A stretch of DNA of 64,000 nt from an uncultured delta proteobacterium (lineage in GTDB: Bacteria; Myxococcota_A; Polyangia; Fen-1088): contig CAWCMR010000015.1 in NCBI GenBank assembly GCA_963796685.1, positions 352,001-416,000 on the forward strand, written 5' to 3'. The notes under the pieces were generated by a model. It saw nothing but the letters and a program-made list of their open reading frames with translations, ran no database searches and was not told where the DNA came from. Shown piece by piece: positions 4,218 through 22,165 of the stretch. Positions within the stretch are counted from its first letter, which is position 1. The number at the start of each line of letters is the position of its first letter. A program made the translations under genes and the position numbers.

Positions 4218-6653
4218 CTAAGGCTTCTTGCCGGTCGCGCCGGGATGCGTTAGCAGGTGTTCCTGCACCAGGTTTTTCAGGGTGGCCATATCGAAGGGCT
4301 TTTCCAGACGCTCGTTGGTGACGGTGTCGAGAAAACCGCGCGCCTTCGGGGTAAAGGCCCCTCCGGTCATGAACACGATGTCGGCCGCGCGCTCGGGCGC
4401 GAATTCCCGCAGCTCGTTGTAGAAGTCCACGCCGGTCACGTCGGGCATCATCAGGTCGCACAAGATGAGGTCGAAGTGTTCTCCGGCGCGAAGACGGTCA
4501 AGCGCCTTGCGCGCGCTGGTCTCGGTGACGACCTCGTTGTCCTTGCCAAGGACGCGCCGCAGAGCGGTGCCAACGATGGGTTCGTCGTCGATGGCTAGAA
4601 TGCGGGCGGAAAGCGCCGCGATGGGGCGGCGGATACGGCTGGTCTTGCGGATCGCGCTGGTGGCCTCGGACGGGGGCAGGAACACCCGGAAGACGCTGCC
4701 CTTGCCAACCTCGCTTTCCACGCTAATCTCACCGCCCAGGGCCTGCACGATCCGATTGCAGATGGAGAGTCCGAGCCCCGTGCCGACCCCGACCGGTTTG
4801 GTGGTGTAGAAGGGCGTGAAGAGGTGGCTCAGCACCTCTTGCGACATCCCGCAACCGGTGTCGCGGACCTCCACCTCGACCCGGCCCCGGGCATCCAGGC
4901 GCGTGGAAATCGTGATGGTGTTCCTGTCCGCGCGACCCTCTTCCATGGCCTGGACGGCGTTGACGATGAGGTTCAGGAACACCTGGCCGAGCCGCGATTC
5001 GTCCCCGTGAACCATGGGCACGGGCTGGAATTGGCGCACGATGTGCGCGCGGTGCTTGAGCTCGTTCCAGGCCATGCGTAGCGAGGATTCGAGAATGCGC
5101 TGCATATCGACCGGTCCCATGGAGGTTTCCGGCGTGCGCGAAAAAATCTTGAGGTCGCGGACGATGTCGCGCAACCGCTCGGACGCTTCGAGGGCGTCGC
5201 GTAGCTCTTCGTCGAGCTCGACCCGATCCTTTTCGCTGCTTCCGTCGAGCTTGAGGGTGGGAACGCATTCGACCGCCATGTGCAGGTTGGTGAGAACCGC
5301 GGCGAGCGGGTTGTTGATCTCATGCGCCACGCCGGCGGCCAAGATGCCCACGGAGGCCATGCGATCGGACACCATGAGCTGTTCTTGCAGACGTCGGTGT
5401 TCGGTGACGTCGAAGATGGTGGCCAGGTGACCCAGGCAGTTGCCATGCTCATCCACGATGGAATGGAAGGCGAGCATGCCCCACAGGGCGGTGCCGTCGT
5501 TGCGGCGCAGGCGGCATTGGGCGCGGTAGGTCTCGGTACCGTCTGTCTTGCCGTGCAGGTAACCGGTGATCGCCTCGACAACCTTGGTCTCGGCCAGAAA
5601 ATGCAGCAAGTCGGCGCCTCCCGCGTCGGCCTCCTTGAGTCCCAGCATGTCGGCCATGCGTCGGTTCATGTAGGTGGTTCGGCCGTCGCGATCGAGCATC
5701 CAAATGCCTTCGTGGGCGGTCTCGACAATGCGGCGGAATTTGATCTCGCTGGCGGCCAGGCTCTCCTCGGCCTTGCGGCGCGCGCGGCGCTCGGCGGCTT
5801 CGCGTAGCTCGCGCTCCACCGCAGGCGCCAGCCGGGCCAGGTTGTTCTTGATCAGAACATCGTGCGCTCCCGATTTCAGGACCTCGACCGCCGTTTCCTC
5901 GCCCACCGCCCCGGACACCACCAGGAAGGGAATGTCCGGTCCCGATTCCTTGAAGATGTGGATGGCGGCCAGGGCGTTGAGACCGGGCAGCGAGTAGTCG
6001 CTGATCACCACATCCCACGGCCCCGACTTGAGTGCAGCGCGGAAGTCGTCGGGCGTGTCAACACGACGCGATTCGACGGTGAAGCCCGCGCGGGTGAGCT
6101 GCCGGGCCACGAGCAGAACATCATCCTCCGAATCCTCGAGAAAAAGCACGTTGAGGTGGGAACCCTGGGAGGGTTCCCACACCCTCCCGCGCTCTGGCTC
6201 CGCCGGGCCAAGCCCGGCTACGCCACCGCGGCTGAGGTGGGAACCCTGGGAGGGTTCCGAGCCAATCCCGCGCTCTGGCTCCGCCGGGCCAAGCCCGGCT
6301 ACGCCACCGCGGCTGAGGTGGGAACCCTGGGAGGGTTCCGAGCCAATCCCGCGCTCTGGCTCCGCCGGGCCAAGCCCGGCTACGCCACCGCGGCTGAGGT
6401 GGGAACCCTGGGAGGGTTCCGAGCCAATCCCGCGCTCTGGCTCCGCCGGGCCAAGCCCGGCTACGCCACCGCGGCTGAGGTGGGAACCCTGGGAGGGTTC
6501 CGAGCCAATCCCGCGCTCTGGCTCCGCCGGGCCAAGCCCGGCTACGCCACCGCGGCTGAGGTGGGAACCCTGGGAGGGTTCCGAGCCAATCCCGCGCTCT
6601 GGCTCCGCCGGGCCAAGCCCGGCTACGCCACCGCGGCTGAGCGGGCCGTTCAT
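4218..6653 (-). CDS. Hybrid sensor kinase (REC-PAS-HisKA-HATPase-REC) with a 162-aa in-frame repeat insertion at the N-terminus
   Basis: ATG overlaps upstream TGA (ATGA); MNGPL-[27 aa]x6-NVLFLEDSEDD; AGVAHEINNP; GTGLGL; C-terminal REC (ILCDLMMP, KPF). Confidence 0.92.
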   Translation of the reverse strand: MNGPLSRGGVAGLGPAEPERGIGSEPSQGSHLSRGGVAGLGPAEPERGIGSEPSQGSHLSRGGVAGLGPAEPERGIGSEPSQGSHLSRGGVAGLGPAEPERGIGSEPSQGSHLSRGGVAGLGPAEPERGIGSEPSQGSHLSRGGVAGLGPAEPERGRVWEPSQGSHLNVLFLEDSEDDVLLVARQLTRAGFTVESRRVDTPDDFRAALKSGPWDVVISDYSLPGLNALAAIHIFKESGPDIPFLVVSGAVGEETAVEVLKSGAHDVLIKNNLARLAPAVERELREAAERRARRKAEESLAASEIKFRRIVETAHEGIWMLDRDGRTTYMNRRMADMLGLKEADAGGADLLHFLAETKVVEAITGYLHGKTDGTETYRAQCRLRRNDGTALWGMLAFHSIVDEHGNCLGHLATIFDVTEHRRLQEQLMVSDRMASVGILAAGVAHEINNPLAAVLTNLHMAVECVPTLKLDGSSEKDRVELDEELRDALEASERLRDIVRDLKIFSRTPETSMGPVDMQRILESSLRMAWNELKHRAHIVRQFQPVPMVHGDESRLGQVFLNLIVNAVQAMEEGRADRNTITISTRLDARGRVEVEVRDTGCGMSQEVLSHLFTPFYTTKPVGVGTGLGLSICNRIVQALGGEISVESEVGKGSVFRVFLPPSEATSAIRKTSRIRRPIAALSARILAIDDEPIVGTALRRVLGKDNEVVTETSARKALDRLRAGEHFDLILCDLMMPDVTGVDFYNELREFAPERAADIVFMTGGAFTPKARGFLDTVTNERLEKPFDMATLKNLVQEHLLTHPGATGKKP
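6152..6641. repeat. Tandem array of six 81-bp palindromic units bounded by TGAG
   Basis: Unit starts at 6152, 6233, 6314, 6395, 6476, 6557; closing TGAG 6638-6641. Confidence 0.97.
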
Positions 6654-7108
6654 GTCAATCCGCCCTCGGCGACAGGCAGTTGATTGAGCGCCAGCCAGTA
6701 GCTGCCGATCAGCTCGACGGCACCGGCGAACTCCACGAAGTCCACGGGCTTGCGGATGTAACTGTTGGCCCCCAGGTCGTAGCTCGTCGCGATGTCGGCT
6801 TGCTCGGTGCTGCAGCTCATGACCACCACGGGGATGTGCCGGCCGACGGGGCTTTGGCGCAGCTGGCGCAAGACCTCGAGCCCGCTCACGCATGGCAGTT
6901 TCAGGTCGAGAAGGATGAGCGCAGGGGTCTGGCCGGGATTGCGCCCCGCCCACTCCCCAAGCCCGAAGACATAGTCAAGCGCTTGCCGGCCATCACGCGC
7001 GCGAACGATTCTGCAGCTCACCCCGCTGCCGTGGAACGCGCGAAGGGTGAGGTCAGCGTCGTCTTCGCTGTCCTCGACCAACAGAATCACTCGTGTCTGG
7101 CGGCTCAT
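6650..7108 (-). CDS. Single-domain response regulator (Rcp1-like)
   Basis: ILLVEDSEDD, LILLDLKLP, SYDLGANSYIRKPVDF. Confidence 0.93.
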   Translation of the reverse strand: MSRQTRVILLVEDSEDDADLTLRAFHGSGVSCRIVRARDGRQALDYVFGLGEWAGRNPGQTPALILLDLKLPCVSGLEVLRQLRQSPVGRHIPVVVMSCSTEQADIATSYDLGANSYIRKPVDFVEFAGAVELIGSYWLALNQLPVAEGGLT

Positions 7109-7198
7109 CCCGGGTATTCCAGCGCCCTTGCAGACTCAGTGTATCGCGGCGTGGAGGTCGCCGCTACCTTGCCACCGTCGGAATGGAGCTGGCGCCGT

Positions 7199-7558
7199 TC
7201 AAAACTCGATATTCAGGGTCTTGCCGTTCTCGGTCGCCGCAATCTGCGAGTGGGGCAGGGTGACGGTGCCGACCGGGGCCAGGACTTGCGAGCTGTTCAG
7301 CAGGCCGATGCTGGGGCGGGCGCTTGAGCTGCAGCGCAGCTTGAGATCGAGGGATTCGCCACTTTGGCTGTTCGCGGTTTCGACCCGGCAGGTAGGGACC
7401 ACTTGCACGGAGACGAACACGAGTGCGCTGCGACTGCCCGCAATGACCGGCCTGGAAAACAAGGTGACGGGGACCATGGCCAGGAGGCACGGGAGCAGCC
7501 ACCGTCCGGTTTGGGACCAACCACCAACCTGATTCGCGCGACGCCGTTGATTGAGCAC
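7199..7558 (-). CDS. Small secreted pilin-like hypothetical protein
   Basis: Signal-like segment then AGSRSALVFVSVQVVPTC and terminal LNIEF, like the neighbouring pilins; start uncertain. Confidence 0.55.
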   Translation of the reverse strand: MLNQRRRANQVGGWSQTGRWLLPCLLAMVPVTLFSRPVIAGSRSALVFVSVQVVPTCRVETANSQSGESLDLKLRCSSSARPSIGLLNSSQVLAPVGTVTLPHSQIAATENGKTLNIEF

Positions 7559-7570
7559 GAAGCAAGGAAG

Positions 7571-7696
7571 AGCAGAATCCGTGCCCTGGCTGCAGCGACG
7601 CGTAACTGCGCGTACTTATTTGGTATTCTAAATTACACCTTATAGACATGTCGTAATGCCGACGAATCGGCTTCGGTGGAGTGTCGGCCACCCGAC
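7571..7696 (-). promoter_or_regulatory. Putative sigma-54 promoter with paired activator sites
   Basis: Minus strand GGGCACGGATTCTGCT (7571-7586); AT-rich spacer; GTCGT-AATG-CCGAC (7650-7663) and GTCGG-CCAC-CCGAC (7683-7696). Confidence 0.55.
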
Positions 7697-7716
7697 GGCA
7701 GACATGCCAGTTACTA

Positions 7717-7851
7717 CTCAGTACCGCCGCCGGGCCGATGGCCCGGATCCTTCAGGCGTGAAACGTGACAGCCCCTCACCCGCCTCGCTGCGCTCGGCGA
7801 CCTCTCCCCGCTTCGCTTCGCTACGCGGGGCGAGGTGTTTCAGGTCAGGAC
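7717..7851. repeat. Single copy of the repeat module of the 17-19 kb array, with an empty IS110 target
   Basis: GGCCCGGATCCTTCAGGCGTGAAACGTGACAGCCCCTCACCCGCCTCG...TTTCAGGTCAGG matches the array units. Confidence 0.93.
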
Positions 7852-7858
7852 GAGAGGC

Positions 7859-8317
7859 TTAGAAATTGATCGTCGCGGTTATGTTGTCCGTGTAGTTTCC
7901 CGCCGGAACATCTTGACCTTGAGGGATCAGGCCGTAAATCGTCAGGGTTACGTCCGGGTTGTTGGCCGTGGCTGTGACCCTGTAGCTATAGGGGTTTGGA
8001 TCTCCCCAGATCTGGCTGTGGGCTGCGTCCAGGTAGAGGTTGTAGCTCAGCCGGTTGGCTCCAAAGGCCATCTGTCTGGGGTTGTTGCTCGGCGCCACGC
8101 CACGACTCAGGTACACGGTCCTCGTGGTCACCTTGCCAGAGCACCAGTAGTGCACGGTGCCGGTGCTGGCGAGATCGGTGCTGTTGACCGCGTTGTAGCT
8201 CCCGAAGGCCACCGGGGTCGTGCTGATCCAGCAACCCGCCGCAGACGCCGAGGGCCCACCGATGACCAGCGCCGCACCCACCACAGAGAGCGACAGCAAC
8301 CAGCGTATGCCTCTCAT
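7859..8317 (-). CDS. Spore coat protein U / Csu-type pilin
   Basis: Signal peptide, VAFGSYN, LSYNLY, IYGLIPQGQDVPAGNYTDNITATINF. Confidence 0.92.
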   Translation of the reverse strand: MRGIRWLLSLSVVGAALVIGGPSASAAGCWISTTPVAFGSYNAVNSTDLASTGTVHYWCSGKVTTRTVYLSRGVAPSNNPRQMAFGANRLSYNLYLDAAHSQIWGDPNPYSYRVTATANNPDVTLTIYGLIPQGQDVPAGNYTDNITATINF

Positions 8318-10963
8318 TTCGTCTCCTTCTTGGGAAGAATACATCGGATCGTTCCCACGTTGACCAAAGCCGTGGCACCAGATGGGACTGCGAGCGAGAA
8401 TGCACATGTGCCGGTCTCGTATTGCACCTCGGCCGAATACGATCCGGGTGGAACATTCTCGAGGTAGAAATTGCCAGCCTCGTCAAGAGGCGAAACCGTC
8501 CGCAGCTTGTCGACGAGGACGATGATCTGCCCATACGCCGGCAGGATGGTCTTGCCCTTGTCGTCGATGACCACGATCCCCGAAACGCTCTGCACCCGCC
8601 GCACCGGGAAGGTCACGATCGCGCCACCACGCGAAGGGGGCGCGATGATTCTTTCGGTGGCCCCGATATCGTGGTCGAGGGGAATGTCCTTGTCGTCGAT
8701 CCCGACCCGGTTGCCGTAGTAGTGGAGCATGCTGGGAATCAGCAGATCCCCTTTGCTGTCGGTCGTTCCGACGACCTGATTGCTCACCAAACCGTGAACG
8801 CCAGGGACACCCGGCACGCGGATGAGGGCGTAGCTGTCCTGGAGCGGCCGGGACAGGTAGGCGCGGCCACCGATGAGAACCAGGCCTCCGGTCGCGGTCA
8901 CCATGGCATGCCCGCGGTCCTCCGTGCCCACTCCCTGGTGTTGATAGTCGGCTTCGATTCGGCCATAGGCGCCTTGGTACTGGGCGTCGGCTTCGTTGAT
9001 GGCGTTCTCTCCCTGGGCAGCCACCAGGCGGTAGCCAACCCCCGGCCCCAAGGGCAACGACTGCTGAAGCGTGGCCTGCGTCGTGCCACCGTGTCCAGCC
9101 TGACCGCCGACGTGATCGCTGCGGGTGGCGCCTGCCGTGACCCTCTCCGCGGGCACGAAGCTCAGGCCCACGAACATGTCGTACTCGGCCGGATAGGCGC
9201 GGGTGTAGATATTGGTCAGGGTTGCGAAGGCATACATCCAACGCGTGACGGTTCGGTTGGCCGCCAAGGTGATTCGGTTGTTCCAGCCCGCATCGCGCCA
9301 CTCGGTCGCCTCGTCCTGTAGGGACAAGCTGGCGACCTTGCCGATGTTGCGAGCGATCGACGCCAGAACATCCGTGCGCTGCCTATCGCTCGACGAGGAA
9401 ATCCCGGGCGGCTCGGCATTCGGAGGCGGAAGGCTGGAGGGATCCAGGTTCAAGGTTGCGTAGTCCACGCTCTGATAGCGAAGGCCGACTTGAAAGTTGA
9501 GCAGACGCCCGACATAGGAATAGGACACGAGCGCGGCTCCGCCGGCGTAACCGCTGTGAGCGCTCGCCGCAACCGCAGCCCCCAGCTCTCCGACGGGCAA
9601 GCGGAGCGCGAGATTGGGACCACCACTCACCATGTACCGGGATCCCTCGGCACGACCACCAAGAGTCAACCAGTCGGTGAGGCCGTAGCGATGACGAATC
9701 AGGAAGGCCGGCTGGCCATAATTCCAACTCTCCGTGCCATAGTTGATGCGTGCGAATCCGGCGTTGTAGCTGAAATCCTGTAGCCCCTTGCTTAGCGTGC
9801 CGAGGGCCAGGTAGTAGGGGGTCTCGATCGTCTGCGCCTGGCCGAAGGCATCTCGAATGACAACTCGGGTCTCGCCGCTGCCGCTGGTCACGGGCAGGTT
9901 CTGCATGTTGAACTGCCCGGGCGGCAGCGCCTCGCGGCGCACGAGTTGGCCATTGACGTAGACCTCGACCATCGAGGGCGTCAGTGCCGTGCCTGAGAGT
10001 TGCTGGGTGGGCAGAAACACATAGTAGGGGTCGAGGCCGAAATTGCGCGTGACGCTCACTCCACCGAGCATGGCGGTCCCGCCGAGCGCGTCACCGGTGC
10101 CGTTCATGTCGCCGAGGATGATGCTGGTGAGGCGATCTCGCCAGTCGAAGGTCAGGTTGGTCAGAAGTCGCTCCCACGACCCATCGACGGCGCTACGCTG
10201 GCCGCTGGCATAGAGCAGGTGACCATGTATGCTGAGCCCGGCCTCGCTGAATCCGTTCCAGGCCATTTCAGGCCTGCTCTGTAGGTTGCTGGCGCCGAGC
10301 GAGTAGTTGACGAACATGCTCGGCGCGTTGTCGTAGATGATGCCCGCTGGCCGCCTGGCGCGAAAATCGAATGTGGTGGCCTCGAATAGCTTCGAGTCTG
10401 CGGTGATGGTCAAACCCAGGCCACGTTCGTCGAAGACGAAGGTTATCTGAGGCGCGAGGGACTGCAGTGAGACCAGGATGTCTCCCTCGTGCTTTTCGCG
10501 CTTGCCTTCGGGAACCCGCAGGCCGGGCTTCTCGAGATCCGACACTTTCGATCAGCACGTCTTTCTCGCGCAGGATGACGAGCACGTCGCCGATGTCGAC
10601 TTGATTGACGGTGGCGTGCAGGAAGGCCGGGGTGTCCTCGGCGGCGGAGGTCATTCCATGAGGAGAGGCCGGGCCGGCTTCTTGGGTAGGGGCGCTTGGC
10701 TGTGCCCCGGTTTCGGGCTCGACGTCCAGACGGTCGAGGGTTGCGCCCACGTCCTGCCCGGCATCCGGGGGAGCTGCGTCCTGCGGCGCACGCTCGAACG
10801 GTGCCGGTTCGAGGCCCGCGGTTTGTGTGGCCACCGCCGAGTCTTCACGTTCGCCGCCATCTGTCGAGGGCAGCGTTTCGGCCGGGGCAGGGGAAGCCAT
10901 CCCAGCCACGAACGCGGCTGGCAGCAGAGCGGGCCACCGGTGGCGTTTCGGGGCCCTGTGCAT
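8314..10963 (-). CDS. Fimbrial outer-membrane usher; frameshift near 10547
   Basis: LSGTALTPSMVEVYVNG, LPPGQF, IRDAFGQ, RYGLTDWLT; N-terminal part lies in ORF 10268-10963. Confidence 0.9.
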
Positions 10964-10981
10964 CCTCCGCGCTCGGTTCGT

Positions 10982-11738
10982 CTATGGAGCGCAGCCAGCG
11001 ACCGCCACGTCCACGTGGCCACCGAAGTTGACCTCGGCTGACTGCACTTCCACCGACAAGGTTTTCGACTTGGCGCAGGCGTCTTTGGGAACCTGAACCT
11101 CCCACACCCGCGTTCCACCCGCCAACACATACCAGCCCTCGAGGTTCTTCTCGAACGTGCTCGCGCCCGCGCTGTTGAGAGCCTTCACGCGCACCGACTG
11201 CACCAAGAAATAGACATTGCCCGTGTTCTTGACCGTGAAGGTGAGCTTGCCCTTGGCGAGGGTCATGCCGTCCACCGCGCCCGCAGCCACCGGCTTGGCC
11301 GGGGAAACGAAGATGGGGACGCCCATCTTGGTCAGCACCTTGACCTCGGACTTGCCCGATGTCTGGGGTGCTCGCAGGGGGGCAGTCCTCGACGAAGACC
11401 CGGTAGCTTCGCTCGACGGCGCCCGCCGGTACGGTCGAACCGATGCGCAGCTTGCGCTCTTCGTTGGGCGCCAGGGTGAGGAGACCGGGATAGACCACGA
11501 TGTCCTTGGTGTCCTTGAGCTGCATCTCGCCTTGCGGGCTCTGTTTCCACTCCTGGACGAGAATCTTGAAGCGGATCTCTTCGTTGGTTTGGCTCTGCAG
11601 GGTGAGCAGGGCGCTCTGGTTCTTGCCCGAGAGCGAGACCTTGATGGGGTTGACGGTGAACGAGCTGGCGTCCGCGCTACCGGCCAGACCAACCAGACAG
11701 CCAAGCAGAAGCAGCGATGAAAGTGTGGCTTTCCTCAT
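10982..11738 (-). CDS. Periplasmic pilus chaperone (PapD/CsuC-like); frameshift near 11385
   Basis: FTVNPIKVSL, ERSYRVFVE, MGVPIFVSP, VKNTGNVY, WYVLAG. Confidence 0.9.
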
Positions 11739-11788
11739 GGCAGGTCAGGATACGCTGGTTTGCCGGCTTTGGAAATTTCGCGTTTCCG

Positions 11789-12337
11789 CTAGAAGTTGAT
11801 GGTCGAGACGAGGGTGTCGTTGTAGGTGCCCGCGGTTGCTGCGAGCTGGGCCGGGGGTATGCGACCGTACATGGTCACATACACGACAGAACCCGTGCCG
11901 TTGAGGTCCGCGCCCGAGCGAAGTGTGCCGCTGTCACCAACGCCCCAAACGCTGGTGCGGCCGGTGTCTTGGTACACCTCGTAGTTGATGAGGGTGGTTG
12001 CCGAGCCCATGTTGATCATGCGCCGCTGGCTGCCCGTGTTGTGCGCCCCATTGCCGAGATCGATCGTGATCCCGGTGGTCCCCTTGGTGCATCGAATGAT
12101 GATGTCGCCGGTCTGATCGTCGGGAACGGTCGCGTGCGTATTCACAGGATCGTAGGGCGCGAAGGCAATGATCGCCGTGCCGATGGTACAGCTCGGAGAG
12201 ACCGAGGTGGAAACGTCCACGATGCTGGTTTGGCTGGCGGCGCTGGCGTTCTCCGATTTGCCGCCAAGGAAGACAAACAACAACGAAATTCCGGCGAGCA
12301 CCATTCTTGACGTTCTACGTTCCATGGGAGCAGTCAT
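11789..12337 (-). CDS. Spore coat protein U / Csu-type pilin
   Basis: SCTI, FAPYDP, CTKG, YGRIP, AGTYNDTLVSTINF. Confidence 0.92.
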   Translation of the reverse strand: MTAPMERRTSRMVLAGISLLFVFLGGKSENASAASQTSIVDVSTSVSPSCTIGTAIIAFAPYDPVNTHATVPDDQTGDIIIRCTKGTTGITIDLGNGAHNTGSQRRMINMGSATTLINYEVYQDTGRTSVWGVGDSGTLRSGADLNGTGSVVYVTMYGRIPPAQLAATAGTYNDTLVSTINF

Positions 12338-12383
12338 TTCTCCTGGATCTTGAAGTCACTGGACGCGTGAGCTGCGTTTCCTA

Positions 12384-12440
12384 GCGTGCGTTTCGCAGCT
12401 CGGCCGGGCGAAGAAATCCAGGCCGGGCTGCTTCGCACGC
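12384..12440. other. Intercistronic stem-loop in the pilus operon
   Basis: GCGTGCG..GCAGCTCGGCC / GGCCGGGCTGC..CGCACGC imperfect inverted repeat. Confidence 0.5.
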
Positions 12441-12493
12441 ATCAGGGATAGTCGGCGGACGTCACCTGGACGATTGCGAGAGTTGGACGGGGT

Positions 12494-13003
12494 CTAGAAA
12501 TTGACCGTCGCCGTCACGGTGTCGGTGTAAGCTCCGACCGAAACATCCTGATTGGCGCCAATCGTTGCCAGAATTGCAAAAGTCGCCCAAGCCGTGCTTT
12601 TGGGTGACGCGGGTGGGATCAGCCAGGAACCTGAGGCGTTTCCCCAGACGTCGTTGGGGGCCTTGTACAGTTCATACGAGAGATAATCGGAGCCGCTGGC
12701 GCTGGGCCCCTTCATCTGGCGAGTTCCGTTTGGACTCTTACCGAGGTCGAGTCCAATGGGAGTGACACTCCCTTTGCTGCACTTGATCTTCACGCTCCCT
12801 TCGTTGTTGTTTACGGCAGTCCCGGCGGTTGGATCGTAATCTGGGAAGGTGACCCCAACGGTATCGATTGTGCAACTGGTCTTCACATTCGCGCTCACTG
12901 CAAGATCCTTCGTTGCGGACTGAGTGTAGGTTTGTGCCATGGCCGTGCCAGACGCGAAAATGCTCAACGACGCCAAGACCGGAAACAGTTTCGTAAATTT
13001 CAT
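12494..13003 (-). CDS. Spore coat protein U / Csu-type pilin
   Basis: SCTI, FPDYDP, CSKG, LSYELY, GAYTDTVTATVNF. Confidence 0.92.
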   Translation of the reverse strand: MKFTKLFPVLASLSIFASGTAMAQTYTQSATKDLAVSANVKTSCTIDTVGVTFPDYDPTAGTAVNNNEGSVKIKCSKGSVTPIGLDLGKSPNGTRQMKGPSASGSDYLSYELYKAPNDVWGNASGSWLIPPASPKSTAWATFAILATIGANQDVSVGAYTDTVTATVNF

Positions 13004-13085
13004 CTCTCGTCCTCTCTTTCTTTGTCCACCGTTTTGTTTTCAGCGAGCCAGGTCTTGCCTGGGGGAGATCCAATCGTTGGGGAAA

Positions 13086-13604
13086 TCAGAAGTTGACCGT
13101 GGCAACCACGGTGTCCGCGTAGGTCCCGGCGGGAACATCCTGTGCGGCAGGGATCCGGCCGTAGACCGTGAAGGTGCGCGGAGCCTTGCTGGGGGCCGAG
13201 CCTGCCGAAAATAGGGCCGTGCCGCCGTTGCCCCATACGTTTGTTCTGCCGTTGTCCTGATAGAGCTCGTACGTGAGGTAGTCCGCCGTCGCGTCCTTCA
13301 TGCGGCGGGTGGTGCCGGACGGATTTGAACCGAGACCGAGACCGATGGTGGCCGAGGTGCCCTTGGTGCACGTGACGATCACGGTGCCGACGTCGTCGTC
13401 ATTCGCGGTGGCATTCGTCACGATGGGGTCGTAGGCGCCGAAGGCGACGGGCGTCGTCGAAATCGCGCAGTTCGCACTGACGTTGGCGCTCACGTTCAGA
13501 TTCGCCGTCGAGCTGCCAGCGGAGAGCATGCGCGCGGATCCCATCACCACCGCGCTGCTCATCGCCAAGCAGAGGAAGATTCTTGCCGTTTTCAGGTTGG
13601 TCAT
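13086..13604 (-). CDS. Spore coat protein U / Csu-type pilin (probable major subunit)
   Basis: LNVSANVSANC, AFGAYDP, CTKG, YGRIPAAQDVPAGTYADTVVATVNF. Confidence 0.93.
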   Translation of the reverse strand: MTNLKTARIFLCLAMSSAVVMGSARMLSAGSSTANLNVSANVSANCAISTTPVAFGAYDPIVTNATANDDDVGTVIVTCTKGTSATIGLGLGSNPSGTTRRMKDATADYLTYELYQDNGRTNVWGNGGTALFSAGSAPSKAPRTFTVYGRIPAAQDVPAGTYADTVVATVNF

Positions 13605-13718
13605 GGTTCGGCTTGCTCCGTCTTGGCGGTGGAGACTCATGTCAAAAATCCCGCGCTTGGGTTGTCATCGTGGCGGCTTGAAGCCTCAGGCCGGCCACGT
13701 ATCGCTCGCGCGCAACCT

Positions 13719-13799
13719 GGTGCCCCTCACCCGCCTCGCTGCGCTCGGCGACCTCTCCCCGCTTCGCTCCGCTATGCGGGGCGAGGTGTTTCAGGTCAG
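13719..13799. repeat. Partial repeat module with an empty IS110 target in the pilus operon leader
   Basis: GCCCCTCACCCGCCTCGCTGCGCTCGGCGACCTCTCCCCGC...GCGGGGCGAGGTGTTTCAGGTCAG. Confidence 0.92.
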
Positions 13800-13829
13800 A
13801 GGCGTCGAAGAGCGAAGGGGATTTCATGT

Positions 13830-14039
13830 GCGCGAACAATGCCAAGATTCTATTTTCATAAAATGAAAGGTGCAATACATTTTTTCAAGCTAGAACAAAA
13901 GACCAATATCTTCCGTGGTCTTGCGCAGTCGGACAATGTCTTATTTTTTCTCCAAAATGCGTCGATAGCGAATTTTGTACCCTGCCTTTTCGTCGGTCTT
14001 CCGCCACCCCGAGGCGGTTTTCCGTATCGCTTTTCCGAC
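13830..14039 (-). promoter_or_regulatory. Putative sigma-54 promoter of the pilus operon with paired activator sites
   Basis: Minus strand TTGGCATTGTTCGCGC (13830-13845); AT-rich tract; GTCGG-TCTT-CCGCC (13992-14005) and ATCGC-TTTT-CCGAC (14026-14039). Confidence 0.5.
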
Positions 14040-14113
14040 GGCTGGGGCGCGAGCGCAGGCTCGGAATCGCTCGGTCGAAACGCGCCTCGGTCAGCCGAGG
14101 CAGGTGGCTTGCG

Positions 14114-16129
14114 CTACTTGCGCGACGGCCGATCAGGCTTCTTGCCGGGGCTGTTCTTGCTCGCGGCCTTGCTGCGTTTCTCGTCGAGATCGGCGAAGGA
14201 CTCCGCGGTGTCGACTTTGTACAGATCCGCCTCGCGCTCGAAGAAGTCCCTTTCGAGCGGCGAGAAGCTTCCGCTCTGCCGCCTCTTTTCCGTCGGCGCG
14301 ACGGCCGGCTCGCCAGGGCTCGACGCAGCCTCATGGCCCGTCGGCATGTGGGGAGCCGTGGTCAACGATGGATCGATCTGAAACGACGACGAGACACGTT
14401 CCAGCCTGCGTGAAATCTTGCCCGAGGGCGGCACCTGGATCTCGCCGGTCACGAGCGCGGCGCTCGGCTCGGTCTCGGGAACGGAGGAGGCCACGGCTGG
14501 CGTGCCAGCATTGGCCGGCTCGGAGGCCAGGGTCGCATCGAGCTGGATCGACATCCGTGCCGCTGGCATCTGTTGGCTGGTCCTGCGCGAGGGCGCGGCT
14601 TGGATTTCACCCGTGATCCGTACCACGGGGCCAGCAGCCGCCAGTTCCGACGAGGGACTTGGCGCCATGGGGCTTGGGATGGCAGGATCCGCTGTGGCCG
14701 ATTCGTGCGCCCTTGCCATGGCGATTGTCGCGGTATCCACCACGATGGAGGTTCGCTCGGGAACGGCGCGTGGATTGGAACGGGTTCGTCGCTCGCGTGG
14801 CTCGATGATCCCGCTGGCCTGCGCCCCCGTCGACGTCATCTTGTGTACCGCCGTGAACGGCGTATGGACGATGCCGGATTCGCCTGGGCCGATTCCCTGC
14901 GTTCCGGTGGCAGGCGAAGGCGCGGCCGGCGCCGGATCAGCTTCGGGCGTGCGTACGGAGGTCGTAACGATCTCCAGGGTCTTCTTGTGCGTGTGACCCA
15001 TGCCTTGGCCGGGCAAGGATTCGTTGCGAGCCTCGGGGGGGGCGCGCAGCTGCGAATCGCCTGGCTGCGGCGTTGGCGTCGTGCCACCGTCGGCGCGTGC
15101 CGGGGGCGTGTGGGGAGTCGCCGACCCCACGATGCGGGCGGTCTCCCAGAACTCCTCGATCGGCAGGCGCGCGGGCTTGGCATCCGAGTCTGGCTTGGGA
15201 TCGCGGCGCGCCAGGATCGCTAGCTCGACCAGTCTTGCCACGATTCGAATGGTGTCGAGAACACGAAAGGGGCTTTCGTCGATGATGTCCGAAAGTGTCC
15301 GCTGTCCGTCGCACAGGCGAACGACGGGCGTCACCTCTGCGGGAACAGCGTTGGCCGAGCTCTGGAGACGTTCCTCGATTCTCGAGTAGACGGTGGAGGG
15401 CGGGCCGACATCCTTCATCGCGTGGGCAAAATCACGCTGGAACCGATCGAGCTCCTCCAGGAACTCCTGGGCGGTCTGGTGCAACTGCCCGCGCCGTACG
15501 ATCGGGCGAAGATGCAATTTCAGCGCGCCATCGTTCCAGACCAGGACGTGCTGGACCGCTGCCATGCCCTGGAGTTGGTGGACCTGGGCCGCAGTCAGCT
15601 CGCCTTGATGAAACAGGATTTCGCCATGTCGGCCCTTGCGCTCGAGCTCGAGCAGGCCGGAACGCCCTAGCCCGCACAGGGTTCGAATCAGCGACAGCGT
15701 GGTCGCGGCCGTGATGGGGAGCCCGAAGGAAGGCTCATCACCCGGGTTTTGCGCCATGGACGCGCCCGCCTCGACCAGCAACTGACTCGCGGTCAGAACG
15801 TCGCGCACGAAGGCCGGCAGCGGCAGCAGATCCGCGTCACCGCTCTCTTTGAGCGTCTTGCGCAACTCCTCGGGGCCGAGAACCAGCAAGGGTAGGGTGC
15901 GGAATGCCTCCTTGCTGCGTACCTGGCGAATGAGCGAATGAGCCTTGTCGTGGTCATTGCGCGACGCGACGACGACGATCTCGGCACCCGCGGCCCTGAC
16001 CAGCAGCGATGCGGTCTCGGGTGTCGGACAGGCAGTGATTCGCCAGTCCGCGCCTTGAAACCCATAGACCAGGGCTTCGAGCCCCTTTGGATCGGCGTCG
16101 ACGATGAGCGCGGAGTGCAAGCTGGACAT
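14114..16129 (-). CDS. Degenerate REC plus DUF4388/PatA-like domain protein with a long low-complexity tail
   Basis: ALIVDAD N-terminus; RSGLLEL..GEILFHQGEL..A, VLVWNDG; LCDGQRTLSDIIDESP. Confidence 0.75.
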   Translation of the reverse strand: MSSLHSALIVDADPKGLEALVYGFQGADWRITACPTPETASLLVRAAGAEIVVVASRNDHDKAHSLIRQVRSKEAFRTLPLLVLGPEELRKTLKESGDADLLPLPAFVRDVLTASQLLVEAGASMAQNPGDEPSFGLPITAATTLSLIRTLCGLGRSGLLELERKGRHGEILFHQGELTAAQVHQLQGMAAVQHVLVWNDGALKLHLRPIVRRGQLHQTAQEFLEELDRFQRDFAHAMKDVGPPSTVYSRIEERLQSSANAVPAEVTPVVRLCDGQRTLSDIIDESPFRVLDTIRIVARLVELAILARRDPKPDSDAKPARLPIEEFWETARIVGSATPHTPPARADGGTTPTPQPGDSQLRAPPEARNESLPGQGMGHTHKKTLEIVTTSVRTPEADPAPAAPSPATGTQGIGPGESGIVHTPFTAVHKMTSTGAQASGIIEPRERRTRSNPRAVPERTSIVVDTATIAMARAHESATADPAIPSPMAPSPSSELAAAGPVVRITGEIQAAPSRRTSQQMPAARMSIQLDATLASEPANAGTPAVASSVPETEPSAALVTGEIQVPPSGKISRRLERVSSSFQIDPSLTTAPHMPTGHEAASSPGEPAVAPTEKRRQSGSFSPLERDFFEREADLYKVDTAESFADLDEKRSKAASKNSPGKKPDRPSRK

Positions 16130-16267
16130 GGTGTTGGGCTGAAAGGCGGCAGCCCAAGAGCCAGTATATCGGCGACACGGATTTGCCGCACGAACGAATC
16201 GCGTTGGAAGAGGATCAATCGGTGTGATCGCCGTAACCGAACCCCGAGGCTCCGGTCGAGTTTCCAG

Positions 16268-16735: not shown

Positions 16736-16750
16736 GTTAGTCTATCGTTG

Positions 16751-16822
16751 AGGTGCCGCCCGGATTTGAACCGGGGAATGAAGGTTTTGCAGACCTTTGC
16801 CTTACCACTTGGCCACGGCACC
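16751..16822 (-). tRNA. tRNA-Cys(GCA), CCA not encoded
   Basis: GGTGCCGTGGCCAAGTGGTAAGGC...CTGCAAA...GGTTCAAATCC...CGGCACCT cloverleaf. Confidence 0.96.
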
Positions 16823-17851
16823 GAGGGTGACTTCCCTTATGTAGCACATCGATCGGCTAGACGGTCAACCCGTATTGAGCGTGGTCGAAGCAAGACCTCG
16901 CCTGTCGAAATCCCGCCTGGCACGGTACGCGACAGCCTTGAGCTGGAGCGGGCGATGGAGTGGCCCGCTTTCCGTCCTCCAAGCACGCGAAGGCTGCGCC
17001 TGGTTTTGCCAGGGCCAGAGCGCGCGAGGCCGAGCGAAGCGAGCGGGGTGGTGGGTGGTGGTGGCGGGTAGGGGCCGAGGGTTTGGCGAGGCCGCGCGCA
17101 GCGCGGGGGGTGGCAAGCGGGGTGGCGGGTGCCGAGCAGGAGGGTATGGGAACCCTCCGAGGGATCCCATCACCCGCGTAGGCGAAGGCGAGCTTTGCTC
17201 GGCTCCGCCAGAGCGCGCGAGGCCGAGCGAAGCGAGCGGGGAGGAGGGTGGCGGGTAGGGGCCGAGGGTATGGGAACCCTCCCAGGAACCCTCCCAGTAC
17301 GGCCGCCGGGGCGAAGGCCCGGATCCTTCAGGCGTGAAACGTGACAGCCCCTCACCCGCCTCGCTGCGCTCGGCGACCTCTCCCCGCTTCGCTTCGCTAC
17401 GCGGGGCGAGGTGTTTCAGGTCAGGGATCCCATCACCCGCGTAGGCGAAGGCGAGCTTTGCCCGCCGGAGCCAGAGCGCGCGAGGCCGAGCGAAGCGAGC
17501 GGGGAGGAGGGTGGCGGGTAGGGGCCGAGGGTATGGGAACCCTCCCAGGAACCCTCCCAGTACCGCCGCCGGGGCGAAGGCCCGGATCCTTCAGGCGTGA
17601 AACGTGACAGCCCCTCACCCGCCTCGCTGCGCTCGGCGACCTCTCCCCGCTTCGCTTCGCTACGCGGGGCGAGGTGTTTCAGGTCAGGGATCCCATCACC
17701 CGCGTAGGCGAAGGCGAGCTTTGCCCGCCGGAGCCAGAGCGCGCGAGGCCGAGCGAAGCGAGCGGGGAGGAGGGTGGCGGGTAGGGGCCGAGGGCATGGG
17801 AACCCTCCCAGTACCGCCGCCGGGGCGAAGGCCCGGATCCTTCAGGCGTGA

Positions 17852-19096
<1,245 letters not shown>

Positions 19097-19781
19097 CCTT
19101 GACTAGGAACACAGATGCTCACCCGCCTCGCTGCGCTCGGCGACCTCTCCCCGCTTCGCTTCGCTATGCGGGGCGAGGTGTTTCAGGTCAGGGATCCCAT
19201 CACCCGCGTTGGCGTAGGCGAGCTTTGCTCGCCGGAGCCAGAGCGCGCGAGGCCGAGCGAAGCGAGCGGGGAGGAGGGTGGCGGGTAGGGGCCGAGGGTA
19301 TGGGAACCCTCCCAGTACGGCCGCCGGGGCGAAGGCCCGGATCCTTCAGGCGTGAAACGTGACAGCCCCTCACCCGCCTCGCTGCGCTCGGCGACCTCTC
19401 CCCGCTTCGCTTCGCTACGCGGGGCGAGGTGTTTCAGGTCAGGGATCCCATCACCCGCGTTGGCGTAGGCGAGCTTTGCTCGCCGGAGCCAGAGCGCGCG
19501 AGGCCGAGCGAAGCGAGCGGGGAGGAGGGTGGCGGGTAGGGGCCGAGGGTATGGGAACCCTCCCAGTACGGCCGCCGGGGCGAAGGCCCGGATCCTTCAG
19601 GCGTGAAACGTGACAGCCCCTCACCCGCCTCGCTGCGCTCGGCGACCTCTCCCCGCTTCGCTTCGCTACGCGGGGCGAGGTGTTTCAGGTCAGGGATCCC
19701 ATCACCCGCGTTGGCGTAGGCGAGCTTTGCTCGCCGGAGCCAGAGCGCGGGAGGGTATGGGAACCCTCCCAGGGTTCCCAT

Positions 19782-22165
19782 CTAGATCGTCTCGTTCCTG
19801 TCATCTGTCTCTGGGCGCACCGGGGCGCCGGTTCGCAGGTAGCGCGAGGCCATCTCGAATTCGAAGAACGAGATCATTTTGGTCTCCACGACCTTGCCCC
19901 ACAGGGCGTGGGCTTCTTCGCGCTGCCCGTTCGACAGTCGCCGCATGGCCTCGTAGAAATACGCCTCGGCGCGCTTGCCACGGGTGTCGGCCTTGGCAAG
20001 CAGGTTGGCATCGTCGATCTGGCCGATCGCGTATCGGGCAAGCTCGGTGTACCAGGGGGCGGCGCGCGATGGGCGTAGCAGGATCTTCCGGCCGGCGATG
20101 GTGCGCAGGTAGGCCATCGCGCCCGCGTCGGGAACGTTGGAGCTGCGCCGGGTGAGATCGAGAATCCACAGCGAGGCGTAGACTTTCACGTACTCGGACA
20201 CCGCCCGCGTGGACTTGGCGAGGGCACGACGGTAGATGTCGAGGGCGGCCTCGCTTTCTCCCCGCTGCACCAAGAAGGCGATAGCGTCGAGGTAGCTTTG
20301 ATCGCGATCCTCGTCCTGTGCGATGGCTTCGTCGAGCTTGCGCAGTCCTTCTTCGCGGCGACCTAGCAGGTAGTACAGCCGACCAACTTCGAAGGTGGCC
20401 TCGGCGGAATAGGAAAGATTCTTGCGCCGCATCTGTTCCATCATCAGCCGTTCCCAGCCGCGTGCGGAAACGCTCCAGGCCTTGCGCGCGTCATCCATGT
20501 CGGCCGTGATCTCGTAGGCATTGCCAAGCAGGTAGGACAATTTGGCCTGACCCTCGACGTACGGGATGGTGTCCTCGGCCGGCGCGTTGCGCTCGCGGGA
20601 ATCCAGGGATTGGCGCAAGAGCACGATGGCCTTCCGGGGTTCGCCGCGCTTGATGAACAAGCTGGCCAGTTGCCGGGTGATGTCCACGCTCGCATCGCCG
20701 CGGCGAGCTCGCGACAGCAGCGGGGCGGCTTTGTCGATTTGTCCGGCGTCGACCATGCCGCCGGCCAGGACGTAGTCGATATCGGAATCGTCGAGCTTGA
20801 AATGGGCCGCTCCGTACCGGCCGCGCGCTTCGGCGAACTCGGTGCGCAGACGTTCGGCTTCGCGCTCGGACTCGGCAATGCGATCCGGATCCATGTGCAT
20901 CTTGAGGCGCAGGAAGGCCAGCTCCATGCGTTCCTCGGCGAGCTCCGCGAGCAAGTCCGGGTCGGCTTTGCGCGAGGCTGCTGCCGCCGCTGCCTCGTCG
21001 AGGTAGCGCAGCGACAGCAGCGGCGCAGAAATCATGCGCGCGACCCGTGAGGCCAGGAGCAGAAGGTCGGGATCGTTGGCGTAGACCGCGAGCCCCTCGC
21101 GCAGAACTCCCATGGCCGTCTGGGGGTCGATGCGATCCGTGGAGGTTCCGTGCAGCATCTCGTTGCGCGGCAGAAATCGTCGGGCCAGTGCCAGGTAGTC
21201 GGCAGCCTTGGCGCGGGGCGAGGCCACCGCGAGGGTGAGCTGACGGAGCTTCCGGGTCGTCGCCGGGCTTGTCCGCGAAGTGCTCGGCCGCCTGATTGGC
21301 CTTGGCCAACTGCCCGCAGCGCAGGTAGATGGCCGCCGCGGATACCGACATGGCCGAAAGGGATTCGGTGTCGAGAAGCAGCTCGCTGAGCAGGCCGCGT
21401 GGTCCTTCGCCGGAGCCGATGGGCCGCCTCAGGAACCCGGCCACCTTGTCCTGGTGGGCGAACACGAGGCGAGCCAATCGATCCACCACATCGGGCGCTG
21501 GCCAGACCGCCGCGACGCTCTCGAGAACGTCGGTCGTCGAGGCCAATCGGCGAGGCTGCCCGCCTCCGAGCTGCGCCCCGGAATCGAGCCAGGAGAAGAG
21601 CTGCTCGAGGCGGGATGGCCATTCGCGATTGGCACCGTCCGTCGATTGCAGGACGAACAGCGACGTGGCCACGGGAAGCTCGTTGCCGCGTGGGGAATAG
21701 GCGGCCAGGACGAGCTTCGCCGACTTTTGCAAGAGCTGTCGTTCTCGTTCGGAGAGTCGCGGCCCACCCGCCGCCCACAAGGCGCTCGGCGGAAACAGAA
21801 TCGAGCGCATCCCGAAACGAGTCCTGCAAGCGATCGAAATCGTCTTCGCCACCCAGCAACGAAGGGTCACGCCGCAACTGTTCCGCATCGAGCGCCGCGA
21901 TGGGGGCGAGCAGGTAGTCGAGAAGCCTGCCGCGCAGGCGGGCGCGCTCGAGCGTGTTCTCCGGAAGCGCCTGGTAGAGCAGCCTGGCCTCGAAAAAGTC
22001 TTCTTCGCAGGTGATGGCACCGAGGGTGTCGGCTTCGTTCGCGAGCGCTCGCGAGGTCGGGCTGAGGTCGGCGGGTTTTCCGGTGGTGCCGTGGGCGCAG
22101 CCAAGCAGACCGGCAAGGCCGAGGGAAACGATCAGGCAAGGCCTGCGTGGCAATTGGGTCGACAT
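19782..22165 (-). CDS. Large TPR-repeat lipoprotein; frameshifts near 21800 and 21250
   Basis: Lipobox LLGC; three overlapping ORFs (21032-22165, 20491-22116, 19782-21227) give one helical protein ending AEAYFYEA...FFEFEMA. Confidence 0.75.

Follow-up and report, generated by a model that had tools for sequence, protein, structure and literature searches.

The window analysed here, a stretch of 64,000 nucleotides from the genome of an uncultured member of the Polyangia (G000, the present genome), raises the question of how six head-to-tail 81-bp units (6152-6637, 486 bp) came to lie inside a hybrid histidine kinase gene and whether they are read as protein. Taken as a whole, the evidence is best explained by insertion of a mobile repeat, followed by local amplification in frame and read-through into a kinase with a tail. 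We regard this account as probable, jointly with its premise that the units belong to a lineage-specific, gene-less family of mobile DNA repeats of uncultured Polyangia.

Tandem Repeats Finder reported a period of 81 with 6.0 copies and 98% matches at 6152-6641 of the window (Table 1). The units are placed between codons 5 and 6 of the kinase and occupy residues 6-167, and the product reads MNGPL, 162 residues of array and then NVLFLEDSEDD in a frame that is open throughout the array. The odd unit differs from the common unit at 5 of 81 positions (94% identity) and is 96% identical to a copy at the same site in G002, the closest relative; it is of the older type, similar to the G002 copies. 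In silico removal of the 486 bp gave MNGPLNVLFLEDSEDD, equal in length to real orthologues such as MSRPLNVLFLEDSEDD in L234. The sequence-only reading had described this restoration of a normal receiver start, along with five identical units and a different one, a unit of 81 bp, an array open in several frames on both strands and a CTCA repeat of 4 bp bounding the insert. All of these points held: TGAG at 6638-6641 equals the unit's first four bases, and the array is free of stops in four of the six frames, the consensus core in five. When the six bases flanking the 75-bp core on either side are compared, five match (GTTGAG and GCTGAG). A target duplication could account for this short flanking repeat, or else it could be the microhomology through which duplication began.

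Table 1. Positions of the kinase array, its surroundings and related features. Positions refer to the window unless a contig is given.
Feature	Position	Strand	Remarks
Hybrid histidine kinase gene	4218..6653	-	Pfam: REC (about 5799-6152), PAS, HisKA, HATPase_c, REC
Odd unit	6152..6232	-	last in coding order, adjoins receiver domain
Hairpin 1 of first unit	6157..6179		10-bp stem TGGGAACCCT / AGGGTTCCCA, 3-nt loop; present in every unit
Hairpin 2 of first unit	6188..6230		longer imperfect stem, GCCGGGC-nnn-GCCCGGC, closed by CGCG/CGCG
Five identical 81-bp units	6233..6637	-	each read as SRGGVAGLGPAEPERGIGSEPSQGSHL in frame with the kinase
TGAG (CTCA on the coding strand)	6638..6641	-	first four bases of the repeating unit
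Single-domain receiver gene	6650..7108	-	152 aa; upstream of the kinase
Composite tandem repeat, 263 bp	17136..17866		family members and other modules
Intergenic family member	19706..19783	+	opposite to the kinase array; closes a composite tandem repeat of 251 bp
Array of 3 x 81 bp in an amidotransferase-like gene	G000:C3:23303-23537

The site was found empty in 27 of 28 kinase orthologues. These included all 21 close metagenome orthologues and six of seven orthologues from genomes of the same genus (G010, G004, G006, G007, G012 and G011), where M or V and five residues precede VLFLEDSEDD, the stretch being longer in G012. The exception was G002, which carries 279 extra bases at the same site, in frame and without a stop, consisting of two copies and a nested second element (81 + 81 + nested 117). 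Copy number at the kinase site is accordingly six here, two in G002 and zero elsewhere, in agreement with the earlier proposal of a repeat of variable length ahead of the REC domain, and the segment is not a conserved domain carried by all orthologues. The comparison shows the kinase insertion to be derived. Although synonymous sites of the gene differ between G000 and G002 by a dS of 0.33, the copies in the two are 96% identical and must therefore be constrained, homogenised or younger than the species split.

The figure of six copies comes from one assembly, a metagenome-assembled genome of 88.6% completeness and 6.5% contamination, and one or two units could have been inflated to six in assembling. 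Short reads are unable to resolve five identical 81-bp units, and short contigs of three soil runs mapped on 5700-7100 cover little beyond hairpin 1, none of them spanning the array. The assembly, however, comprises 26 contigs, the longest of 2.1 Mb, and many other arrays are resolved in it, among them 11 x 80 bp and 6 x 372 bp. Arrays of the element are also present in the independent assemblies G001, G002 and G004. In addition, a 151-nt soil-run contig, which by its 11 differences comes from a related strain, joins a copy of the element to the upstream receiver gene. An artefact of assembly is on this evidence very unlikely.

A period of 27 residues, in frame and free of stops, could also mark a genuine protein-repeat domain of the kinase whose intergenic matches are decayed gene fragments. 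The genome-wide count of the unit that had been suggested as a check gave 287 nhmmer matches in 102 loci of the 7.3-Mb genome, with 87 full-length copies; about 94 of the loci lie outside genes, on both strands, and the other eight lie in genes, in frame. Scored for codon usage in frame with the kinase, the array has -0.06 per codon as against 0.40 for the remaining gene, the array peptide has no Pfam match, and arrays outside genes include periods of 79 and 80 bp. Extragenic loci, codon usage, periods and empty orthologues together refute a protein-repeat domain, to which we attach virtually no probability, and confirm the initial view that this is a repeat of DNA. Copies of the family are often in tandem, and the arrays are uniform internally while differing from each other in linker and loop, which fits local amplification. 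The intergenic member on the opposite strand had been described as the reverse complement of the unit at 19702-19782. It is indeed a family member in that orientation, but with identities of 85% to the common unit and 90% to the odd one it is not an exact reverse complement, and its position is slightly different (Table 1).

The core of the repeat is 75 bp and consists of two stem-loops. The earlier description of the unit as palindromic calls for correction, as two adjacent hairpins are present and not one palindrome. In 39 aligned copies, partly hand-chosen for diversity, 90.6% of the cells were paired, as opposed to 28-50% when partners were slid, and compensatory changes were seen in 10 of 27 pairs, a level reached by 0 of 500 shuffles. 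Hairpin 1 had 99% of its cells paired and compensatory changes in 2 of 10 pairs, and the inner helix of hairpin 2 had changes on both sides in 8 of 13. Two units folded as RNA gave a predicted energy of -111.9 kcal/mol (z = -6.1). The stems are conserved in extragenic copies too. A scan with Rfam placed no family on the element, the sole real match in 5500-21000 being a tRNA at 16751-16822. All 18 of the other genomes searched in this taxonomic family gave DNA matches to the repeat family, whose matches elsewhere in the class were limited to 1 of 12 further families. The hairpin-1 pattern occurred in named records mostly from Myxococcales or Polyangia MAGs; matches in Rokubacteria/Methylomirabilota MAGs, one Streptomyces and one Paraburkholderia were to hairpin 1 only and not to the whole element, and a wider spread was rejected.

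Four insertions could be measured, three of which add 81 bp (75 + 6). Of the six bases on either flank, four agree for the copy in CoaBC and about one or two in a Ser/Thr kinase, compared with five in the histidine kinase. No match to PF01797, the RAYT-type (Y1) transposase, was found in G000 at its 88.6% completeness. This Pfam family was matched in 11 of the 31 genomes of the taxonomic family, unrelated to the spread of the element, and the seven Y1 copies of G033, considered as a partner, have no sequence in common with it. Half-sites of hairpin 1 outside the family loci numbered 58 and were in other short modules; in a limited look among these, none was seen at the ends of transposase genes, where a parent insertion sequence was sought. 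The PilZ host gene has a G010 orthologue with a 1.6-kb insertion close to the corresponding position, but this proved to be an unrelated element, with a 499-aa open reading frame without Pfam match and a flanking 8-bp duplication.

The insertion could be real and the array nevertheless untranslated. The kinase would then be made from the in-frame GTG at 6149-6147 directly after the array, or made poorly, the 486 bp would be a structured intercistronic spacer and the open frame a by-product of high G+C. With so many frames open in core and array, openness alone means little, only five codons precede the array, and the available text of Di Nocera et al. (2013, PMC3733652) cautions that many repeats seemingly at gene N-termini are in fact extragenic. 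On the other hand, no Shine-Dalgarno-like stretch is present 5-10 nt before this GTG and hairpin 1 covers the region. The native start is intact: the kinase ATG (6653-6651) overlaps the TGA of the receiver gene (6652-6650) as ATGA, the ATG is preceded at a distance of 8-12 nt by a ribosome-binding stretch of GAGG type, and ATGA or GTGA coupling is common to most of the orthologues, so the coupling had rightly been described as kept and ribosomes should enter the array in any case. The three length events in G002 (81, 81 and 117) are all in frame and added no stop, and the arrays of an amidotransferase-like gene, described below, lie inside coding sequence with no alternative start. An untranslated spacer is thus an unlikely reading, and we favour translation of the array, which would yield the peptides GGVAGLGPAEPER and GIGSEPSQGSHLSR.

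The kinase that follows the array has a dN/dS of 0.070 between G000 and G002, and that of the receiver domain adjoining the array is 0.03; these rates show the kinase to be still under purifying selection. An AlphaFold2 single-sequence model of residues 1-300 had a mean pLDDT of 44 and placed the first strand of the receiver fold, with low confidence, at residue 166. The array was below 50 and without secondary structure in the model, which weakly suggests a disordered array.

At least eight genes of this genome, the kinase and seven more, carry the repeat in frame, and all eight have orthologues without it. In-frame copies are found in CoaBC, where an interdomain linker holds the copy, and further in a Ser/Thr kinase, a BcrAD/DUF2229 protein, a PilZ protein, a Pyr_redox_2 protein and an M16 peptidase. 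These hosts bear no relation to one another, and the copies reside in linkers, tails and one likely propeptide. One reading frame is common to six of the eight in-gene loci (R-V-G-x-A-G-L-x-P-A-E-P-E-R-G-...-E-P-S-Q-G-S) and its peptide is rich in Gly, Pro, Ser and Glu; by hand calculation the probability of at least six of eight falling in any one of the five open frames is about 0.006. The strongest parallel to the kinase is the array in the amidotransferase-like gene, preceded by a conserved N-terminal peptide (M.D...LATRS.Y) and followed by the conserved body, whose first residue is Cys, with no in-frame ATG, GTG or TTG in the array or in the stretch after it. The same site holds 1 + 5 units of 78 bp in G001 and three units of 84 bp in G004, and is empty in G010, G011 and G012. 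As only five codons precede the kinase array, the case for an array inside coding sequence is weaker there than in the amidotransferase-like gene. Five independent in-gene length events (81, 117, 81, 78 and 84) are all multiples of three, whereas among the 10 extragenic arrays of G000 only 4 have lengths divisible by three. A peptide search of 1.84 billion representative proteins returned 24 matches at E <= 0.001, a count that says little since representatives at 50% identity hide most host proteins. Most of the matched proteins look like open frames read across arrays, without a Pfam domain, but two may be real host proteins: P0005, in which three 28-aa copies separate a 52-aa N-terminus from a hydrophobic stretch, and P0004, with two copies ahead of a NUDIX domain.

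The favoured frame and composition of the peptide, together with the strong predicted RNA structure and an element that changes more slowly than synonymous sites of its host gene, could be taken to mean that the array is kept as useful, either as a tail of variable length that tunes the N-terminal receiver or as mRNA structure that sets the ratio of receiver to kinase. Yet 27 of the 28 orthologues do without the insert, the copies occur in unrelated hosts, at linkers, tails and one likely propeptide, and the peptide matches no Pfam family and is predicted to be unstructured in the low-confidence model. Conservation of the stems outside genes moreover assigns the constraint to the element and not to the kinase. 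Retention for a benefit to the kinase is for these reasons quite unlikely.

Under the preferred account of insertion, amplification and read-through, the common ancestor of G000 and G002 would have received one copy between codons 5 and 6 of its kinase gene. The gene would have stayed open since an addition of 81 bases amounts to 27 codons and no stop occurs within the core in that frame. Local duplication likely followed by slipped-strand mispairing or by unequal recombination between the short direct repeats flanking the hairpin-prone core, slippage being a mechanism that we infer. Further expansion, recently of one variant unit, would have led to the five identical copies seen here. With native start codon, ribosome-binding stretch and overlap with the upstream stop all intact, ribosomes should read through the array, and the product would be a kinase with an N-terminal tail of 162 residues. 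This tail is probably disordered, tolerated and dispensable for function, and its presence would be neutral.

A broader proposal, made tentatively and with doubt slightly outweighing confidence, is that a mobile hairpin element of 27 codons with a favoured frame builds peptide repeats of variable number in real proteins by amplification in place, that the number turns over between species, and that this amounts to transposon-driven variation of protein length in a free-living bacterium, by an element that may move without a known type of transposase. If true, such building of protein repeats is seen in the tail of a sensor kinase, in the N-terminal peptide of an amidotransferase-like protein and in the linker of CoaBC, which is normally essential. 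The natural series of 0, 2, 3 or 6 copies at the same site offers a tractable system for the tolerance of disordered inserts and for the expansion of hairpin repeats. In genome annotation, some N-termini near the arrays will be overlooked by gene callers and others will be called where none exist.

No such element in myxobacteria was found in the literature outside subscription journals. Palindromic repeats inserted in frame are best known from Rickettsia and are often treated as an oddity of reduced intracellular genomes. The sequence-only reading had taken the array for a Myxococcota analogue of these Rickettsia palindromic elements (RPEs) that also amplifies in tandem, and this is supported by the eight in-frame genes with empty orthologues and by the amidotransferase-like gene, whose arrays in three species number 3, 6 and 3 units. 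As far as RPEs are described in the available text of PMC10969869 and PMC3733652, the likeness is in the way of working. Both are small, dispersed, gene-less palindromic repeats confined to one lineage, and both lie in frame in unrelated, apparently functional genes, at sites that tolerate extra residues, with a conserved peptide and one preferred frame. The present host, however, is a myxobacterium living free in soil, in contrast to the reduced genomes of intracellular bacteria, and the element is 75-81 bp in length compared with about 150 bp for RPEs, with 8 of 102 loci in genes compared with nearly half in some RPE families (both PMC10969869). In addition it forms head-to-tail arrays, outside genes and inside them. 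RPE-like behaviour is thereby extended to large-genome soil myxobacteria, with clean filled and empty sites between species. What appears new relative to the available text of these two sources is that within coding sequence entire units are multiplied head to tail with the frame kept.

The element resembles REP sequences, as covered in the available text of Di Nocera, De Gregorio and Rocco (2013, PMC3733652), in its G+C-rich stem-loops with compensatory changes, its mostly extragenic location, its tandem reiteration with short linker DNA and its few intragenic copies of 20-30 residues in linkers or termini. It differs in that the unit is a fixed pair of different hairpins of 75 bp rather than a single palindrome of 20-40 bp, and the same text makes no mention of translated in-gene arrays of 3-6 whole units. 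The tag next to the stem of hairpin 2 reads G-N-A-G, with GTAG in about a third of the aligned copies, and the RAYT-type transposase (PF01797) was not found in the 88.6% complete genome. With bacterial MITEs that form in-frame fusions (intragenic ERIC, Coxiella QMITE and Correia elements, as available in PMC10969869) it shares a non-autonomous nature, a length below 300 bp, presence or absence between close relatives and occasional fusion in frame. It is without their terminal inverted repeats of 15-30 bp, as its sole inverted repeat is formed by the adjacent 10-bp arms of hairpin 1 at one end, and the limited look taken revealed no parent insertion sequence. Its flanks match at five, four and about one or two of six bases. 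Variable-number tandem repeats in coding sequence have a unit that is a multiple of three and a copy number that varies between relatives while the frame is kept. The kinase site, with 6, 2 or 0 copies, and the amidotransferase-like site, with 3 x 81, 1 + 5 x 78, 3 x 84 or 0, follow the same pattern, but here a dispersed mobile element supplies the unit that is copied, rather than a sequence that arose on site.

Tandem Repeats Finder resolved window positions 6152-6641, within a hybrid histidine kinase gene (4218-6653, minus strand), into 6.0 copies of an 81-bp period with 98% matches. Unit-by-unit comparison gave five identical copies at 6233-6637 and one, at 6152-6232, that departs from the common unit at 5 positions (94% identity), so that both methods returned the six units, five identical and one variant, of the sequence-only reading. 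The 4-bp repeat said there to bound the insert is likewise present, TGAG at 6638-6641 being the beginning of a seventh unit. The copy number is six in the one assembly that forms its basis. From its start codon the kinase reads five codons (MNGPL), 162 array codons and NVLFLEDSEDD, the opening of a receiver domain. Pfam domains REC, PAS, HisKA, HATPase_c and a second REC were detected in the kinase and none within the array. Stops are absent from the array in 4 of 6 frames, in line with its earlier description as open in several frames. A codon-usage score trained on 431 long ORFs from the source MAG (G000) came to 0.40 per codon in the kinase and 0.24 in the upstream gene; the array, read in the kinase frame, scored -0.06. 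As RNA, two array units had a folding energy of -111.9 kcal/mol (z = -6.1). In a single-sequence AlphaFold2 model that was poor overall (mean pLDDT 44), the array had no secondary structure (pLDDT <50) and the receiver fold began at residue 166.

The array units belong to an element that, in the 7.3-Mb G000 assembly (26 contigs, 65% G+C; the window is G000:C15:352001-416000), gave 287 matches at 102 loci in three rounds of nhmmer; 202 were left once overlapping opposite-strand matches had been resolved, 87 of them full length. The 75-bp core is made up of hairpin 1, with a 10-bp stem (TGGGAACCCT / AGGGTTCCCA) and three loop bases that vary between loci, and hairpin 2, which is longer and imperfect. 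In 39 aligned copies (3 window copies, 20 G000 copies selected in part for their diversity, and 16 copies of other MAGs) pairing held in 90.6% of cells, as against 28-50% with partners slid by 1-3 columns, and changes on both sides occurred in 10 of 27 pairs, a count as high as this being reached in 0 of 500 shuffles. On its 5' side hairpin 1 is commonly preceded directly by TTGA-, TGAG- or TAGTA-like bases. Many G000 loci are head-to-tail arrays with identical or near-identical units inside each, the linker and hence the period (77 to 84 bp) being particular to each array, and larger composite units of 124-372 bp are repeated in some. Dispersal over 102 loci, together with the array codon score and the lack of a Pfam match, bears out the view that this is a DNA repeat and not a protein repeat. 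The intergenic reverse-complement copy noticed earlier is indeed an opposite-strand family member, but not an exact copy (Table).

Elsewhere in the window, higher-order tandem repeats of the element with other modules occur at 17160-17866 (263-bp period) and 19118-19754 (251-bp period), within a long gene-free stretch adjoining a tRNA at 16751-16822, and Tandem Repeats Finder reported a 243-bp repeat at 30147-30718 (about 2.4 copies, 78-85% matches). A second repeat family has a terminal ATGGGAACCCTG in common with the element and continues with ACCTGAAAC... (kinase locus of the congeneric genome G002, L002:1300-1420, and several G000 sites); a third module type has the same opening as the second family, then ...TGCACTCGGCACC.

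Orthologues with an empty kinase site were sought and made up 6 of the 7 within the genus, namely those of G010 (94% identical protein), G004, G006, G007, G012 and G011, and all 21 close orthologues on metagenome contigs, a count biased to empty sites if short-read assemblies fail across arrays. Empty sites consist of the start codon, five residues (more in G012) and VLFLEDSEDD, the start usually overlapping the upstream stop (ATGA or GTGA). The G002 kinase (96% identical) carries 279 bases at the same site as the G000 array: an element copy split in the hairpin-1 loop by a nested 117-bp element of the second family, then a second copy; the whole stays in frame, without a stop, from its GTGA-coupled start. 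By these comparisons the kinase insertion is derived. The odd G000 unit, being 96% identical to the G002 copy, is of the older type, and the other five, all identical, are a recent expansion. Between the G000 and G002 kinases dN/dS was 0.070 at a dS of 0.33 (0.03 in the receiver domain beside the array), and the gene has thus remained under selection with the insert in place. In an independent data set, a 151-nt soil-run contig links the upstream gene to an element copy and matches window 6568-6718 with 11 differences, one of which changes the kinase ATG to GTG as in G002; the receiver-kinase junction of a related strain therefore also holds the element.

All G000 loci were screened for open frames and for the coding score on either flank, followed by Pfam and an orthologue search within the genus. 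This supplied the genome-wide count of in-frame copies inside genes: 8 of 102 loci, that is, the kinase and seven further genes (Table). Candidates in SecY, glycosyltransferase and lyase genes were excluded, their copies lying upstream of likely start codons. Six of the eight in-gene loci share one strand and frame, reading ...AGL.PAEPERG...EPSQGS..., and the consensus element is without stops in 5 of 6 frames; the chance of at least six of eight in any single one of five frames is about 0.006 (hand calculation). The PilZ orthologue of G010 (L312:192-1836, G010:C18) is split, almost where G000 has the element, by a 1.6-kb insertion that has a 499-aa ORF without Pfam match and is bounded by an 8-bp duplication, TGATGATA. 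G002 has two near-identical CoaBC loci (L133, G002:C19; L145, G002:C14), both with the insertion, and the neighbouring region is also matched twice, which suggests a duplicated segment or a mixed bin.

Table. Element copies in the window and inside genes, with the kinase start codon.
Feature	Position	Strand	Details	State in other genomes
Kinase start ATG	window 6653-6651	minus	overlaps TGA of upstream 152-aa receiver gene	
Intergenic element copy	window 19706-19783	opposite to kinase array	85-90% identity to array units	
Amidotransferase-like gene	G000:C3:23303-23537 (L215:304-538)		3 x 81 bp array; frame shared by 6/8 in-gene loci	
CoaBC	between Flavoprotein and DFP domains		81 bp in G002, 120 bp in G000	empty in 9 other genomes
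Ser/Thr kinase	right after kinase domain		81-bp copy	filled in G000, G002; empty in G010, G001
BcrAD_BadFG/DUF2229 protein	between domains		78-bp copy	empty in six genomes
PilZ protein			element copy	empty in G006, G012, G007
Pyr_redox_2 protein			element copy	empty in 8/8 relatives having the gene
M16 peptidase			element copy	empty in at least 9 genomes

The amidotransferase-like gene, of 944 aa with GATase_6 and GXGXG domains, holds a second array, and the region 3' of it gives a weak match to the glutaminase domain in GlmS structures. On the 5' side an ATG preceded by AAGGAGG is followed by 20 codons (MRDLPEQVLATRSQVYEEGD), a peptide kept in all orthologues; on the 3' side come EEGG, a Cys and then a body with 91-96% identity within the genus. 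From the array through to the Cys there is no in-frame ATG, GTG or TTG, and the array is therefore necessarily translated, provided that the protein is made. The same site holds one divergent and five 78-bp copies in G001 and three 84-bp copies in G004, all in the same frame, and is without the element in G010, G011 and G012. In amidotransferases of this class the N-terminal Cys that they use becomes exposed once leading residues or a propeptide have been removed; if such processing holds here, the array would lie within a cleaved-off peptide.

In the kinase, an in-frame GTG directly 3' of the array would, if used as a new start, place the array outside the coding sequence, and Di Nocera et al. 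2013 (PMC3733652) advise a caution on repeats at gene N-termini that applies to it. Translation is favoured by the native start, intact with its coupling, by the frame being open, by the events in G002 that kept it, and by comparison with the amidotransferase-like gene, and we infer that the kinase array is translated.

Five independent in-gene length events were each divisible by three: 81 for the kinase, 117 for the element nested in G002, and, for the amidotransferase-like gene, 81, 78 and 84. The probability of this by chance is (1/3)^5, about 0.004 (hand calculation). Ten G000 arrays outside genes, non-coding by codon score alone, have periods of 80, 80, 79-80, 80, 81, 81-82, 84, 79, 81 and 77-80, divisible by three in 4 of 10. 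Insertion length was 81 bp in three of four measured cases, which would fit duplication of six target bases in addition to the 75-bp core; comparison of the six bases on either side gave 5/6 and 4/6 matches at two sites and hardly any at a third. At one orthologous intergenic site G010, G001 and G012 have 0 copies, G000 has about 1.3 and G002 has 4. The first duplication may have occurred by slippage between short direct repeats either side of the hairpin-prone core, and later expansion and contraction by slippage or unequal recombination, a model with which the array unit of core and array-specific linker, its uniformity inside each array and the varying counts at one site are consistent. No mobilising enzyme was found, nor any Y1/HUH transposase in G000; Y1 genes are sporadic across the family, and the copies in G033, of the same family, share nothing with the element. 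The 9.3-Mb G033 (L165, L226-L231) gave 11 weak PF01797 matches, and seven aligned copies form at least two groups with 0.7-1.2 kb of shared sequence; one copy is followed by a GCTGA-type microsatellite.

Within the genus all 12 other genomes gave DNA matches, as did all 6 other genera of the family; beyond the family, 1 of 12 families of the class did. Most named records with the hairpin-1 pattern are soil and fen MAGs of uncultured Myxococcales, Polyangia or "delta proteobacterium", and a few from other phyla have hairpin 1 alone. Rokubacteria / Methylomirabilota MAG contigs (L015, L036, L048 and L063) have several exact matches to the 21-nt hairpin-1 palindrome, with the rest of the element absent; these may be due to chance, to contamination or to a different element that has this hairpin too.

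Literature searches returned nothing on such elements in myxobacteria. Of the features of REP/RAYT systems, no RAYT was found in G000, and the GTAG tag reads G-N-A-G in the aligned copies, with GTAG in about a third of them; the long terminal inverted repeats of MITEs are lacking. Its in-gene share (8/102 loci) is low compared with Rickettsia palindromic elements, to which it is likened by its behaviour. That behaviour agrees with Rickettsia palindromic elements as treated in a 2024 review (PMC10969869) and with the intragenic REPs and tandem REP clusters of Di Nocera et al. 2013 (PMC3733652), and the element forms a new family that works like one or the other. The proposed analogue of Rickettsia palindromic elements gains support from the arrays in two genes and several species, where tandem amplification within coding sequence keeps the frame, a feature added to those of the known systems.
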